A stretch of DNA of 64,000 bases from Patescibacteria group bacterium (GTDB lineage Bacteria; Patescibacteriota; Patescibacteriia; 2-01-FULL-39-33), in the NCBI GenBank assembly GCA_041649575.1, contig JBAZMW010000002.1, positions 78,159 through 142,158 on the forward strand. The letters are read 5' to 3'. Both the position numbers and the translations under genes were made by a program. Shown here piece by piece: positions 11,521 to 34,855 of the stretch. The notes below the pieces were generated by a model. It was not told the DNA's origin, searched no databases, and worked only from the letters and a program-made list of their open reading frames with translations. Position 1 is the first letter of the stretch. The number at the start of each line of letters is the position of its first letter.

Positions 11521-11558
11521 ATAGCATATAGCTTATGGCGTATAGCAAATAGTTTTTT

Positions 11559-11915
11559 ATGGCATTTAGATTCGAAAGTTTGGAGATTTGGAAAGAGGCG
11601 ATTAATTTTTCTAGTTCTACTTATAAAATTACTCGTCAGTTTCCCAAAGAAGAACTGTTTAGTTTATCTAGTCAGTTAAATCGGGCTGCGATTTCTATTT
11701 CGGCTAATATAGCCGAGGGCTCGGCAAGTGATAGTGTAAAAGAGTTTAGAATGTTTCTGAATATTTCCATTAGATCTGGCGTCGAAGTAATATCTGAATT
11801 ATTTATAGCTAAAGAAAGAAGCTATTTATCAGACGAAGAATTCGGCGAGTTATACAATACTGGAGAATTATTAATAAGAAGAATTTCCTCATTTCGCAAT
11901 CAATTAAAATTATAA
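11559..11915 (+). CDS. Four-helix-bundle protein (23S rRNA intervening-sequence protein family, TIGR02436/PF05635-like)
   Basis: Signature SSQLNRAAISISANIAEGSA; 118 aa. Family is common in CPR genomes. Confidence 0.75.
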   Translation: MAFRFESLEIWKEAINFSSSTYKITRQFPKEELFSLSSQLNRAAISISANIAEGSASDSVKEFRMFLNISIRSGVEVISELFIAKERSYLSDEEFGELYNTGELLIRRISSFRNQLKL

Positions 11916-11938
11916 ACCATAAGCTATAAGCCATCCTT

Positions 11939-12202: not shown

Positions 12203-13384
12203 ATGAAAGTAAAATCAATCAGGCAATTAAAAAAATTTCAGGGCAAAAAAGTTTTGCTAAGAGTTGATTTTAATGTTTCCTTGGGAGCCAATCATAGGGT
12301 TGATAAAGCGGAAGATTACCGGATTGTCAAAACCTTGCCGACCATAAAATTTTTGACCAGTCGCGGTGCCAGAGTGATCATTATGGCCCATTTGGGCCGA
12401 CCACATGGCAAAATAGTGGAAAACTTGCGTTTAAAACCGGTAGCCGAAAAATTGTCAGAACTATTGAAGAAAAAAGTTTTGTATAGCAAAACCGTTTTAG
12501 GCGCCGAAACCAAACAATTAATCAAACAGATGAAGGCTGGCGATGTTTTAATGCTGGAAAATTTGCGTTTTGACATTCGGGAAGAGCGGGGAGACAAAAA
12601 TTTTGCTCGGCAGCTGGCGGAATTAGGCGATATCTACATCAATGAAGCTTTTGCCGACAATCACCGCCATCACGCTTCGACCGCCATCATTCAAGATTAT
12701 TTGCCGGCTTACGCTGGCCTGCTGCTGGAGCAAGAAATTCTGAATTTGACCAAAGTTCTAAAAAAACCCAAACAACCGCTGGTGGTGATAATCGGCGGTA
12801 CCAAGATGGAAACAAAAATAAGAGTTATTAAAAATTTTTCTAAAGTTGCCAAGAAAATTCTTTTGGGCGGCGCTTTGGCCAATACGGTTTTGCACGTGAT
12901 GGGCGTTAGCGTCGGCAGATCACCGGTGGAAAAATCAATGTTTTCCGAAGTCAAAAAATTTAAATTGACGGCCAATCAGATCGTGGTGCCTCTCGACGGC
13001 GTCATGGCCGCCAAAATCGACAGCCAAAAGGGCCGGATGGACGCTTTGGCAGACGTCAGAGATAATGAATTGATTTTGGATGTCGGTCCTGATACCATAA
13101 AACTCTATGAAAAAATCATCAAATCCGCTAAAATGGTAATGTGGAACGGGCCAATGGGGCTGATAGAAAATCCGGTTTTTGCCAAAGGCACCCAGGCGCT
13201 GATAAAAATTTTGGCCAATTCTTGCGCCGAAACCATCGTCGGTGGCGGCGAGACCGTGCAAATGATTCGGCAAATGAAATTAGAAAACAAATTTAATTTT
13301 GTTTCTACCGGCGGGGGAGCGATGCTGGAGTTTTTGGAGGGAAAAAAATTACCTGGGCTAAAAAAGTTGATTAAGAATTTATAA
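12203..13384 (+). CDS. pgk: Phosphoglycerate kinase
   Basis: 393 aa; motifs RVDFNVSL, MAHLGRP, GGGA..MLEFLEGKKLPG typical of PGK. Confidence 0.9.
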   Translation: MKVKSIRQLKKFQGKKVLLRVDFNVSLGANHRVDKAEDYRIVKTLPTIKFLTSRGARVIIMAHLGRPHGKIVENLRLKPVAEKLSELLKKKVLYSKTVLGAETKQLIKQMKAGDVLMLENLRFDIREERGDKNFARQLAELGDIYINEAFADNHRHHASTAIIQDYLPAYAGLLLEQEILNLTKVLKKPKQPLVVIIGGTKMETKIRVIKNFSKVAKKILLGGALANTVLHVMGVSVGRSPVEKSMFSEVKKFKLTANQIVVPLDGVMAAKIDSQKGRMDALADVRDNELILDVGPDTIKLYEKIIKSAKMVMWNGPMGLIENPVFAKGTQALIKILANSCAETIVGGGETVQMIRQMKLENKFNFVSTGGGAMLEFLEGKKLPGLKKLIKNL

Positions 13385-13390
13385 CTTTTT

Positions 13391-13428
13391 TGTCATTGCG
13401 AGCGGAGTGAAACGCAGCGAAGCAATCT
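13391..13428. repeat. Left arm of an inverted repeat flanking the GIY-YIG gene
   Basis: tgtcattgcgagcggagtgaaacgcagcgaagcaatct. Its reverse complement (with an internal ~10-nt deletion) is at 13737-13764. Confidence 0.75.
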
Positions 13429-13444
13429 TTTAGATAAGACAGAT

Positions 13445-13735
13445 ATGGCCAAATATTATTACGTTTATGTTTTGACTAATGCCAACAATTATGTTTTATA
13501 CACAGGAGTCACAAATAATTTGCAGAGAAGGTTATGGGAACACAAAAGCGGTAAGGCGGACGGTTTTACTAAAAAATATAAGTGTAAAAAATTGGTTTAT
13601 TATGAATATTCGGAGTCAATAGGCGCAGCCATAAATAGAGAAAAACAAATTAAGGCCGGCTCAAGAAAAAAGAAATTGGAATTGATAAACAATTTTAATC
13701 CGCAGTGGTTGGATTTGGGGCTGGAGATGTTTTAA
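13445..13735 (+). CDS. GIY-YIG nuclease family protein (small, 96 aa)
   Basis: YYVYVLTNANNYVLYTGVTNNLQRRLWEH carries the GIY-x10-YIG and R/E catalytic pattern. Confidence 0.8.
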   Translation: MAKYYYVYVLTNANNYVLYTGVTNNLQRRLWEHKSGKADGFTKKYKCKKLVYYEYSESIGAAINREKQIKAGSRKKKLELINNFNPQWLDLGLEMF

Positions 13736-13736
13736 G

Positions 13737-13764
13737 AGATTGCTTCGCTTTGCTCGCAATGACA
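13737..13764. repeat. Right arm of the inverted repeat flanking the GIY-YIG gene
   Basis: agattgcttcgctttgctcgcaatgaca is the reverse complement of the ends of 13391-13428. Confidence 0.75.
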
Positions 13765-13827
13765 AAATAAAACAGCCTACAATCAATGAATTAACTAAGA
13801 AAAATTAATAAATAACCAGAAATTTTT

Positions 13828-14616
13828 ATGGACGAACAAAAACTAGACTGCTGCCATAGCAGTAAATGCCATTGTGCCAAGTACGTAATTCTTGGCATCT
13901 TGGCCTTGGCCCTGATTGTTTACGTGGGCGTTTTAACCAGGAACGCCTGGCGGACTTACGATTATATCGGTAAGTCGCCCGATATTCAGGATAGGATTAC
14001 TGTCACCGGTACCGCCAAAGTCAGCGCCACGCCGGATGTGGCTGTGCTATACTTGGGAATTGTCAGCGAAGGCGCTACGGTTAATGCGGCGCAAAAAGGC
14101 GTCACCGAAAAAATGAATTCCATCATCGATTCTTTGAAAAAAGAATTTAAGATTGAGGCCAAGGATATTCAGACTCAAAATTTTAGTGTTAATCCCAAGT
14201 ACGACTGGAGCGACGGCAAGCAAAGAATTATCGGTTACAGCGCCAATCAAAGTGTTCAGGTAAAAGTCAGAGACTTTGACAAGACCGGTGATATTTTGGC
14301 CAAAGCGACCGATTTGGGCGCTAACACCGTTTCTGGTCCGAATTTTATAATCGACGATCCGGAAAAGGCCAAGGCCGAGGCCAGGGATAAAGCCATTGCC
14401 CAGGCCAAGGAAAAAGCCAGTTTGCTTGCCGATCAGGTTGGCATTAAGCTGGGCAGAATTGTTAATTTTTATGAAGGCGGCAATGAAATGCCTAATGCAG
14501 TTTACAGCCGTGATATGGCCATCGGTCTGGGTGAGACAAAGTCCGTTGCCCCGGTCATTGAACCAGGCAGCCAGGACGTGCAACTCACCGTCAGTATTAG
14601 TTATGAAATAAGATAA
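13828..14616 (+). CDS. SIMPL-domain protein (DUF541 / YggE-like) with an N-terminal Cys/His-rich segment and a TM anchor
   Basis: C-terminal KAKAEARDKAIAQAKEKASLLADQVG...VSISYEI resembles SIMPL/26 kDa periplasmic immunogenic protein. N-terminus CCHSSKCHC. Confidence 0.55.
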   Translation: MDEQKLDCCHSSKCHCAKYVILGILALALIVYVGVLTRNAWRTYDYIGKSPDIQDRITVTGTAKVSATPDVAVLYLGIVSEGATVNAAQKGVTEKMNSIIDSLKKEFKIEAKDIQTQNFSVNPKYDWSDGKQRIIGYSANQSVQVKVRDFDKTGDILAKATDLGANTVSGPNFIIDDPEKAKAEARDKAIAQAKEKASLLADQVGIKLGRIVNFYEGGNEMPNAVYSRDMAIGLGETKSVAPVIEPGSQDVQLTVSISYEIR

Positions 14617-33817: not shown

Positions 33818-34855
33818 ATGTTTAAAAAAATTTTTAGTAAATTTAATAAAGGCCTAGGAGTCGATCTGGGTAGCACCAAGACCATGATTTATCTTCAGGA
33901 TCGCGGTATTGTTGTTAATGAGTCATCGGTAGTGGCGGTTAATAATCGTACCGATCAGATTTTGGCCGTTGGTGACACCGCCCGGCGCATGCTCGGCAAA
34001 ACACCGCCTCATATCATCGCCACCCAGCCGATAGAAAACGGCATTATTTCTGATTTTGAAATAACCGAAAAAATGTTGAAGTATTTTTTTAATAAAATCC
34101 AGGCCGGTAAATTTTTCTTTTCAGTCAAGCCCAGGGTAGTTGTTGGCATACCGCTGGATGTAACCGAAGTCGAAAAGAAAGCGGCCGAAGATGCCATGCT
34201 CTCTGCCGGGGCCGGTGAGGTTTTTTTGGTGGAAAACATTATGGCGGCGGCCATTGGCGCCAGAGTTCCCATTCAGGATCCAACCGGTAATATGGTTGTC
34301 AATTTGGGCGGTGGCTTGACAGAGGTGGCGGTTATCTCTTTGGATGGCATTGTTAATTGGCGAGTCTCCCGGGTAGCCGGGCTGACTTTGGGCAATGATA
34401 TTATTAGATTTGCTAAAGATGAATTTAATTTAGTTTTGGGCGAGATGGTAGCCGAAGATATTAAGAAAAAAATCGGTTCAGCCGTGGAATTAAAGGACCC
34501 CCTGGAAATGCAAATGCGGGGCAGGGATGTGGTTTCCGGTTTGCCCAGAGAAGTGACAATTAATAATATTCAGATTCAGAATGCCATTGGCCGCTCCACT
34601 CAAAATATTCTCGACACTATCAAGGCTACCTTAGAGACCACTCCACCGGAATTGGTGGCCGATATTTACCAGAAAGGTATAATTTTGACCGGTGGTACCG
34701 CCCAGCTTAGGGGATTGGATAAATTTATTTCTCAAGGCATTCGGGTGCCTGTTCATATTGCCGATGACCCCCAGACCTGTGTTGTCAGGGGCATGGGAGC
34801 AATTTTAGACGATGAGCATCTTTTAAAAGATATCGCCATCCCTTCTTCTCAATAG
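33818..34855 (+). CDS. mreB: Rod shape-determining protein MreB (paralogue 2, canonical mreBCD context)
   Basis: GVDLGSTKTMIYL, NLGGGLTEVAVIS, ILTGGTAQLRGLDKFI. Confidence 0.9.
   Translation: MFKKIFSKFNKGLGVDLGSTKTMIYLQDRGIVVNESSVVAVNNRTDQILAVGDTARRMLGKTPPHIIATQPIENGIISDFEITEKMLKYFFNKIQAGKFFFSVKPRVVVGIPLDVTEVEKKAAEDAMLSAGAGEVFLVENIMAAAIGARVPIQDPTGNMVVNLGGGLTEVAVISLDGIVNWRVSRVAGLTLGNDIIRFAKDEFNLVLGEMVAEDIKKKIGSAVELKDPLEMQMRGRDVVSGLPREVTINNIQIQNAIGRSTQNILDTIKATLETTPPELVADIYQKGIILTGGTAQLRGLDKFISQGIRVPVHIADDPQTCVVRGMGAILDDEHLLKDIAIPSSQ

Follow-up and report, generated by a model that had tools for sequence, protein, structure and literature searches.

A probable Ssn-family nuclease gene between inverted hairpin motifs in a Patescibacteria genome

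The Ssn proteins (CDD cd10448) form a family of single-domain GIY-YIG proteins of ~94 aa (Chenal et al. 2025, Nat Commun, PMC11893778). They bind a short oriented hairpin motif in single-stranded DNA only and cleave a few nucleotides 5′ of this motif, again only when the DNA is single-stranded, with no activity on double-stranded DNA or RNA (PMC11893778). The motif is named NTS in Neisseria (CGTCATTCCCGCGMAVGCGGGAATCYRG) and SRM in general; the GTC ahead of the palindrome is most important for cleavage, the C directly after the palindrome is most important for binding, and the loop is dispensable (PMC11893778). Typically the motif flanks the ssn gene itself, and the resemblance of NTS-ssnA-NTS to an insertion sequence was left by the authors as a hypothesis (PMC11893778). 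In N. meningitidis, SsnA modulates transformation via NTS copies, and SsnA does not bind RNA (PMC11893778). We found no later literature on Ssn mobility.

The locus described here, a small GIY-YIG gene between two hairpin motifs, also resembles other systems in part. In the IS200/IS605 and RAYT (REP/BIME) systems a small nuclease gene is likewise located between short hairpin-forming repeats, which are recognised in single-stranded form; target sites are not duplicated, and gene-less repeat pairs are spread in genomes. The enzymes of these systems are of the HUH/Y1 type, form covalent 5′-phosphotyrosine intermediates and can rejoin strands, whereas GIY-YIG enzymes just hydrolyse DNA, without a covalent intermediate and without rejoining. 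Moreover, the ends of IS200/IS605 elements are not inverted copies and are both cut on the same strand, whereas the motifs studied here lie on opposite strands. GIY-YIG homing endonucleases of the I-TevI type also have their catalytic domain encoded in a small selfish insertion. These enzymes, of about 250 aa, have a linker and a separate C-terminal DNA-binding domain. They cleave the intron-less allele as double-stranded DNA and lack flanking recognition hairpins of their own. A homing-type cassette had been suggested by an earlier inspection of the DNA (the sequence-only reading), but this assignment is not supported: the protein is a bare 96-aa domain, and the characterised Ssn nucleases cut only single-stranded DNA by their own flanking motif and not an empty allele (PMC11893778). 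The NCBIfam model for group I intron endonucleases, TIGR01453, scored 15 bits against a cut-off of 56, no second domain was detected, and the gene occupies the interval between pgk and a SIMPL gene and not an intron, an intein or a free-standing position in a phage. Finally, the UPF0213/YhbQ-type proteins (PDB 1zg2, 1ywl) share the bare GIY-YIG domain of about 95-105 aa and are the closest solved structures, but the sequence similarity is weak (E 6e-5 to 1e-4) and they belong to a different CDD subfamily from Ssn in the published tree (PMC11893778).

The locus and its protein

We analysed a stretch of 64,000 nucleotides from a Patescibacteria (CPR) genome, referred to below as the window. The inverted repeat that the sequence-only reading had described around a 96-aa GIY-YIG gene was recovered at the positions listed in Table 1. 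The unit is located between pgk (12203-13384) and a SIMPL/DUF541 gene (13828-14616), with 16 nt between the left arm and the ATG and 1 nt between the ORF and the right arm, which begins at the second nucleotide after the stop codon. The two arms share 13 + 12 identical nucleotides and differ solely in the central loop, of 13 vs 3 nt, which accounts for the whole 10-nt difference in length. Arm cores of 12 and 13 nt were found at just these two places in the window, where ~0.2 matches per 64 kb are expected by chance with one mismatch allowed. The inverted repeat is real and not a chance occurrence. The GC content of the unit is 0.37, compared to 0.435 for the window. The 16-nt spacer ahead of the start codon is partly conserved in the closest units (TTTAAAATAAGnGTAnT in the alignment) and is presumed to be the translation-initiation region. 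The left arm, just past the pgk stop codon, is followed by a short T-run (TCTTTT). A promoter and terminator scan detected no site at either arm, with counts at the level of shuffled sequences and no convincing promoter, and no relevant Rfam family was matched.

Table 1. Positions of the arms, the gene and their parts in the 64-kb window
Feature	Position	Strand	Description
Left arm	13391..13428	+	38 nt; hairpin-motif copy, Ssn-related; GTC end outward, away from the gene
Left arm, sequence	13391-13428	+	TGTCATTGCGAGC[GGAGTGAAACGCA]GCGAAGCAATCT; the middle part is the central loop
Left arm, T-GTC	13392-13394 (GTC)	+	
Left arm, outer stem	13395-13399 and 13422-13426	+	ATTGC pairs with GCAAT
Left arm, interior		+	GA-GC[13-nt loop]GC-GAA, then C at 13427
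Spacer, left arm to start codon	13429..13444	+	16 nt, TTTAGATAAGACAGAT
ssn gene	13445..13735	+	96 aa, single-domain GIY-YIG nuclease, probable Ssn family; TAA stop 13733-13735
Right arm	13737..13764	-	28 nt; second motif copy, 3-nt loop; GTC end outward; abuts the stop codon
Right arm, sequence	13737-13764	-	Reverse complement of TGTCATTGCGAGC[AAA]GCGAAGCAATCT
Right arm, core	13763-13738	-	GTCATTGCGAGC-AAA-GCGAAGCAATC
Complete arm-gene-arm unit	13391..13764	.	372 nt from GTC to GAC; 374 nt with the flanking T/A

The 96-aa ORF matched the Pfam family GIY-YIG (PF01541; E 6.9e-15, residues 4-77). As SsnA reference the N. gonorrhoeae orthologue was used (locus L090, 1489-1773, from a chromosome filed in the plasmid collection). 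This 94-aa protein has Y6, Y17 and E64 as described (PMC11893778), and canonical NTS copies surround its gene. Pairwise BLASTP of the window protein against gonococcal SsnA gave 39% identity (E 1e-23), and in a 7.3-Gb database the gonococcal locus was retrieved by tblastn with E 3e-14. Family membership has been defined as homology to Neisseria SsnA at E < 1e-10 (PMC11893778), and both values obtained with the N. gonorrhoeae orthologue lie below this threshold. Residues Y8, Y19 and E66 of the window protein align to Y6, Y17 and E64 and are invariant in 24 relatives; R29, H33 and N85 are further conserved residues. The single domain of about 95 aa, the aligned catalytic Tyr, Tyr and Glu, and the significant similarity to gonococcal SsnA are features shared with the Ssn family. 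Identity of the window protein is 58% to a Rickettsiaceae protein and 53% to one from Burkholderiaceae (L074), whose gene has canonical NTS on both sides, each flank reading GTCATTCCCGCGCA[A/C]GCGGGAATC, the Neisseria-type motif.

The AlphaFold model of the window protein (pLDDT 93.3) has the bare GIY-YIG fold, beta-beta-alpha-alpha-beta-alpha-alpha, and its nearest solved structures are UPF0213, the Slx1 nuclease domain and the UvrC N-terminal domain. Neither Pfam nor the model gave an extra DNA-binding domain in the 96 aa. A sequence search of the PDB returned just UPF0213 proteins (E about 1e-4) and no Ssn structure, and nothing informative was obtained from NCBIfam, PADLOC and PHROGs. The window protein and the neighbouring pgk protein are singletons in the protein database, where the next pgk is 73-74% identical. 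The ssn gene is under strong purifying selection, with dN/dS of 0.06-0.08 and synonymous sites near saturation (pS 0.56-0.79).

Taken with the motif described below, the region is very probably an SRM-ssn-SRM unit, that is, an Ssn-family GIY-YIG nuclease gene between two inverted copies of the recognition hairpin motif of its kind. This arrangement of a gene with flanking hairpins was already published in 2025, and the kind itself is not new. The locus places the Ssn family in a CPR/Patescibacteria genome, which differs from the known Ssn/NTS host.

The hairpin motif and its relation to the protein

Both arms read T-GTC-ATTGC...GCAAT-C, with a GTC preceded by a base other than G on the 5′ side of a semi-palindrome and a C directly on its 3′ side, and at least one such copy is present within 500 bp on each side of the ssn gene. 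The arms thereby share the YGTC-stem...stem′-C frame of the published motif. As in the Ssn/NTS loci, the gene is flanked on both sides by an oriented hairpin motif of 26-36 nt in the frame YGTC-AT..stem...stem′..AT-C. However, several features differ. The stem in the window is ATTGC followed by GAG...GAA, and not ATTCCCGCG; the window protein has AGSRKKK where the Neisseria-type proteins have KKWNRAWK; the GTC ends face outward, whereas those of the nearest N. gonorrhoeae copies face inward; and two copies were found in 64 kb here, compared to hundreds per genome.

As a consequence of this different stem, the published SRM search string, HGTCWYN(0-2)YYVSBRHN(0-5)WNVSBRGN(0-2)RNCYNB, has no literal match anywhere in the 64-kb window, including both arms. 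The string performed well on positive controls, with nine matches around gonococcal ssnA and matches in both flanks of L074, but a literal match was found in just 7 of the 80 loci of relatives. The string is too narrow for the ATTGC-GAG class, which is dominant in this clade, so that the commonest motif class of the clade is missed by the published string.

When folded as single-stranded DNA with nearest-neighbour DNA energies, the single arms of the window unit form weak hairpins (-2.7 and -4.1 kcal/mol) that are no better than those of shuffled sequences (z about 0). The case for a hairpin therefore rests on covariation in the family and not on thermodynamics. For the covariation test, GTC plus the next five bases near the genes of relatives was taken as anchor, and the matching complement plus C was sought in a 72-nt window, in which a given hexamer is expected by chance in about 2% of cases. 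The 5′ stem was followed by its own complement plus C in 90 of 99 cases for ATTGC, 7 of 8 for ATTCT (AGAATC), 4 of 5 for ATTCC, 4 of 6 for ATTAC and 2 of 3 for ATGCT. The majority sequence GCAATC never followed ATTCT or ATTCC, and followed ATTAC in one of six cases. Under this 5′-anchored definition, elements were 14-fold enriched over dinucleotide shuffles (408 vs 29.6); it replaced a looser definition (GTC plus any 5-mer ... complement plus C) that gave just a 2-fold enrichment. The outer stem covaries in the family, through compensatory changes.

Of 128 arms of relatives, 115 have T or C at position -1. Many inner segments form perfect stems of 5-10 bp, and 15 of 58 have z < -2. A 26-mer identical to the right arm adjoins ssn genes in Ignavibacteriaceae (L006, L023) and in a deltaproteobacterium (L069), and the long-loop variant of the left arm is also present in L081 and in 71 metagenomic stretches. 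In the window unit and its three closest relatives, the arm cores are 100% identical despite near-saturated synonymous sites. Strong selection keeps both the gene and the arm cores.

The residues that follow REKQIK in the protein track the stem class. The xGS type (AGS in the window protein) occurs with ATTGC stems in 61 of 62 loci, whereas a Trp as second residue after REKQIK (KKWNR in Neisseria, and L074) occurs with ATTC[C/T] stems in 7 of 8 loci. This association has a Fisher p of 5e-8, without correction for phylogeny and on loci selected by a pattern that favours the GS type. In the model, G72-S73 forms the turn between the helix of E66 and the basic C-terminal helix R74-K-K-K, and this turn together with the helix is likely the part that reads the DNA. 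The correlation of xGS with ATTGC and of xW with ATTC[C/T] makes this turn a candidate specificity determinant, which could help to choose or engineer Ssn enzymes as tools for single-stranded DNA.

Loosely defined, the motif occurs somewhat more often in the window than in shuffles (8 vs 1.6). One further hairpin at 33922-33956 (+), GTC-ATCGGTA...TACCGAT-C, has a 7-bp stem and the GTC...C frame, lacks the GAG/GAA features and is probably a chance match.

Distribution of the unit and of gene-less arm pairs

A genome scan with one genome per species yielded 80 loci with proteins 53-69% identical to that of the window. They belong to Chloroflexota, Cyanobacteria, Bacteroidota, Ignavibacteriota, Planctomycetota, Elusimicrobiota and Nitrospirota, to several proteobacterial classes including Rickettsiaceae, and to the CPR groups Woesebacteria, Parcubacteria and Komeilibacteria. 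The layout was compared across 79 relatives from more than 12 phyla. The sequence-only reading had asked whether GIY-YIG singletons of CPR genomes carry such repeats and whether the repeat occurs only here; the CPR loci have arms too, and so do relatives in other phyla. The nearest upstream element is on the strand of the gene in 47 loci and the nearest downstream element on the opposite strand in 44 loci. Arms with GTC outward on both sides are the commonest layout, seen in 34 of the 79 relatives compared to 6 with the inverse layout. The arms lie close to the gene, at a median distance of 21 nt on the start-codon side and 7.5 nt on the stop-codon side.

In the 29 loci with two strict arms, identical inner segments were never found, the length differed in 25 and the median identity was 0.61. 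These unmatched inner segments indicate that the arms do not co-evolve as a duplex. The arms are therefore copies of a modular motif that vary independently of each other, the ends being conserved and the tip free, which is what the loop-replacement experiments would predict (PMC11893778). The 28-38-nt complementarity between the arms is a by-product of the presence of two inverted copies.

Two loci deserve separate mention. Gonococcal ssnA (region L090 1278-2182) lies within a dense NTS array of both orientations. Its nearest upstream copy is on the - strand and its nearest downstream copy, directly after the stop codon, on the + strand, so that both GTC ends point towards the gene. This is opposite to the window unit and to most relatives in this clade, and the outward geometry is therefore not universal. 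The ssn homologue of L080 (Zixiibacteriota) has arms on both sides and an in-frame stop codon in the region REKQIK-G*LRSKKI, and may be a pseudogene.

The three closest proteins are 77-83% identical to the window protein, and none of their genes adjoins pgk. Their neighbours are an MmeI-type restriction-modification gene in one case, pth and dprA in another and unknown genes in the third. All three units nevertheless have the + arm about 17 nt before the ATG and the - arm 2 nt after the stop codon. When the four units were aligned with their flanks, the homology began exactly at GTCATTGC and ended exactly at GCAATGAC. The host neighbourhood of the window unit (NiFe hydrogenase, HypA, PGK, SIMPL, enolase and iPGM) is conserved in the nearest available relatives. 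In the contigs of four relatives the gap between pgk and SIMPL is 11-13 nt, compared to 443 nt here, and a further relative has two other genes at this spot. As the pgk genes of the syntenic relatives are just 73% identical, these junctions mark the empty site approximately and not to the exact insertion point. Since the unit is absent at the syntenic site and located elsewhere in the closest relatives, a gain by insertion fits better than an old host gene. These comparisons show the gene and its two arms to be a discrete cassette of patchy distribution, inserted and moved between genomic contexts and phyla. The lower GC content of the unit and the selection on both gene and arms point the same way. 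With its sharp borders at the arms, the empty syntenic site and the gene-less pairs described below, the comparative evidence for a discrete insertion is unusually clean, and the cassette-like nature first noted by the sequence-only reading was borne out.

The SIMPL start codon is separated from the right arm by ~63 nt (13765-13827) without counterpart in the relatives, where the entire pgk-SIMPL gap is 11-13 nt; this stretch may belong to the insertion, be left over from an older element or be a diverged spacer. In a relative without ssn at the pgk site (L087, L088), a solo SRM-like hairpin, GTCATTCCGGAAT...ATCCGGAATC, is present between SIMPL and enolase on the - strand (L087 6292-6347, L088 5739-5794). 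A second small-gene cassette is located 1.5 kb upstream of the window unit, at 11521-11934, between the gene for the NiFe hydrogenase large subunit and HypA. Its ORF (11559-11915) encodes a 118-aa protein of the 23S-rRNA-intervening-sequence family (PF05635, E 8e-31) and is bracketed by a 24-nt inverted repeat (11521-11544 / 11911-11934, 83% complementary); the GC content of this cassette is 0.33, compared to 0.435 for the window. The hydrogenase-HypA gap is about 12 nt in L085, and a different ORF of 184 aa is located there in L087.

Searches of mobile DNA gave no clear vector for a spread across phyla in the phage and plasmid collections. The phage collection contained just distant matches (<43% identity), and in the plasmid collection 36 records had matches, mostly on large replicons.

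With the long-loop arm variant of the window as query, a metagenome scan retrieved the 71 stretches mentioned above, almost none of which adjoins an ssn gene. In 51 of 76 matches an inverted partner followed 5-31 nt (median 18) after the arm. These gene-less pairs are GTC-outward, about 90 nt long and equivalent to the cassette minus the gene. Among the 80 genome loci, too, adjacent elements most often form short +/- pairs. Direct target-site duplications of 2-8 nt showed no excess over permutation among 50 gene-sized and 139 gene-less pairs, and none was found at the window unit. Matching between the left and right flanks was confined to positions -1 and -2, outside the GTC. In two sets of metagenomic contigs, gene-less pairs are nested in a larger repeat, with the inverted ends GGGAGCATCCCAAATGTG ... 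AAAATTGGGATGC in the first set (L091, L095, L103, L111, L112, L119, L125) and CCACTCTAAAAA ... TTTTTAGAGTGG in the second (L101, L107, L113, L121, L124, L128). This nesting suggests composite repeats, or insertion into other palindromic elements.

Possible mobility and alternative explanations

From what is described for characterised family members, a mode of action can be proposed for the window unit. When the DNA becomes single-stranded, during replication, uptake or repair, each arm would fold on its own into a small hairpin, in which an outer stem of 5 bp (ATTGC/GCAAT) is followed by an internal loop rich in purines and then by a variable tip. By the same analogy, the protein would bind the arm hairpin sequence-specifically and nick a few nucleotides 5′ of the GTC. 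With the GTC ends facing outward, nicks are predicted at both outer borders of the unit, one per strand. As hydrolysis proceeds without a covalent intermediate, nuclease-driven transposition would need host factors, and to our knowledge no mechanism is known for such transposition by GIY-YIG enzymes. We tentatively propose, as a possibility that we hold at well below even chances, that the arm-gene-arm unit is an autonomous mobile element of an undescribed class. Its only protein, the single-stranded-DNA nuclease, would nick the border arms on opposite strands, host replication or repair would complete the move, the ~90-nt gene-less pairs would be non-autonomous derivatives, and the turn (G72-S73 here, Trp in Neisseria) would set which stem is read. 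The comparisons between genomes lend support to mobility, an idea so far raised just as a hypothesis (PMC11893778).

Two other explanations of the repeat concern the arms as such. The arms might pair in the transcript as a long-range RNA stem, as the sequence-only reading had offered for the whole mRNA. The duplex, for whose sake the repeat would be under selection, could keep the ssn mRNA sequestered, make it more stable, or serve in regulation or termination. A 396-nt RNA does fold with the arms paired (z = -4.9 vs shuffles), as any inverted repeat would, and the left arm with the TCTTTT past the pgk stop codon could weaken read-through from pgk. However, the inner segments never match between the arms of the 29 two-arm relatives and many form 5-10 bp stems of their own, so that pairing along the whole mRNA did not hold up. 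In addition, the covariation is found inside an arm and not between arms, gene-less pairs and solo copies are common, the terminator scan and Rfam yielded nothing at the arms, and SsnA does not bind RNA (PMC11893778), which together make selection for an RNA duplex very improbable. We consider it similarly far-fetched that the unit is a classical transposon remnant or MITE whose arms are terminal inverted repeats read in trans by a DDE-type or other transposase, with the GIY-YIG gene as mere cargo. The sharp limits at the arms, the gene-less arm pairs and the many contexts and phyla would all suit such an element, and in this form, with its ~90-nt gene-less pairs, the earlier description of the unit as MITE-like still applies. 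Against it, direct target-site duplications do not exceed the permutation expectation and the arms are self-contained hairpin motifs whose stems covary internally. Moreover, in more than 12 phyla the arms come with this one small gene, the protein co-varies with the stem class, as expected of a protein that reads the arms and not of cargo, and family members bind and cut exactly such a motif in vitro (PMC11893778).

A third explanation concerns the function of the protein. The gene could serve a domesticated host function without current mobility, for instance restricting incoming single-stranded DNA in natural transformation, and the flanking motifs would be relics or autoregulatory sites. 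This would agree with the modulation of transformation by N. meningitidis SsnA through NTS copies (PMC11893778), with the strong purifying selection on the gene and with the location of one close relative beside dprA, whose product processes DNA that has been taken up. However, there are just two motif copies in the 64 kb, both flanking the gene, and no sign there of a Neisseria-like genome-wide target set, so a host-wide marking system is not evident; the unit is also absent at the syntenic site of relatives and found at other places in the closest ones. We regard a purely domesticated role as unlikely. A host role and mobility are not mutually exclusive.

Apart from their relation to ssn, the arms are visible in predicted proteins. 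ORFs that run into arms give stereotyped peptide tails (...EEIAS...RNDT and ...LSLRAKRSNLL), as in an Anaerolineales protein (P0087) and in the - strand ORF 13661-13786 of the window. In annotations, these arms probably often give rise to spurious C-terminal extensions and to tiny hypothetical ORFs.
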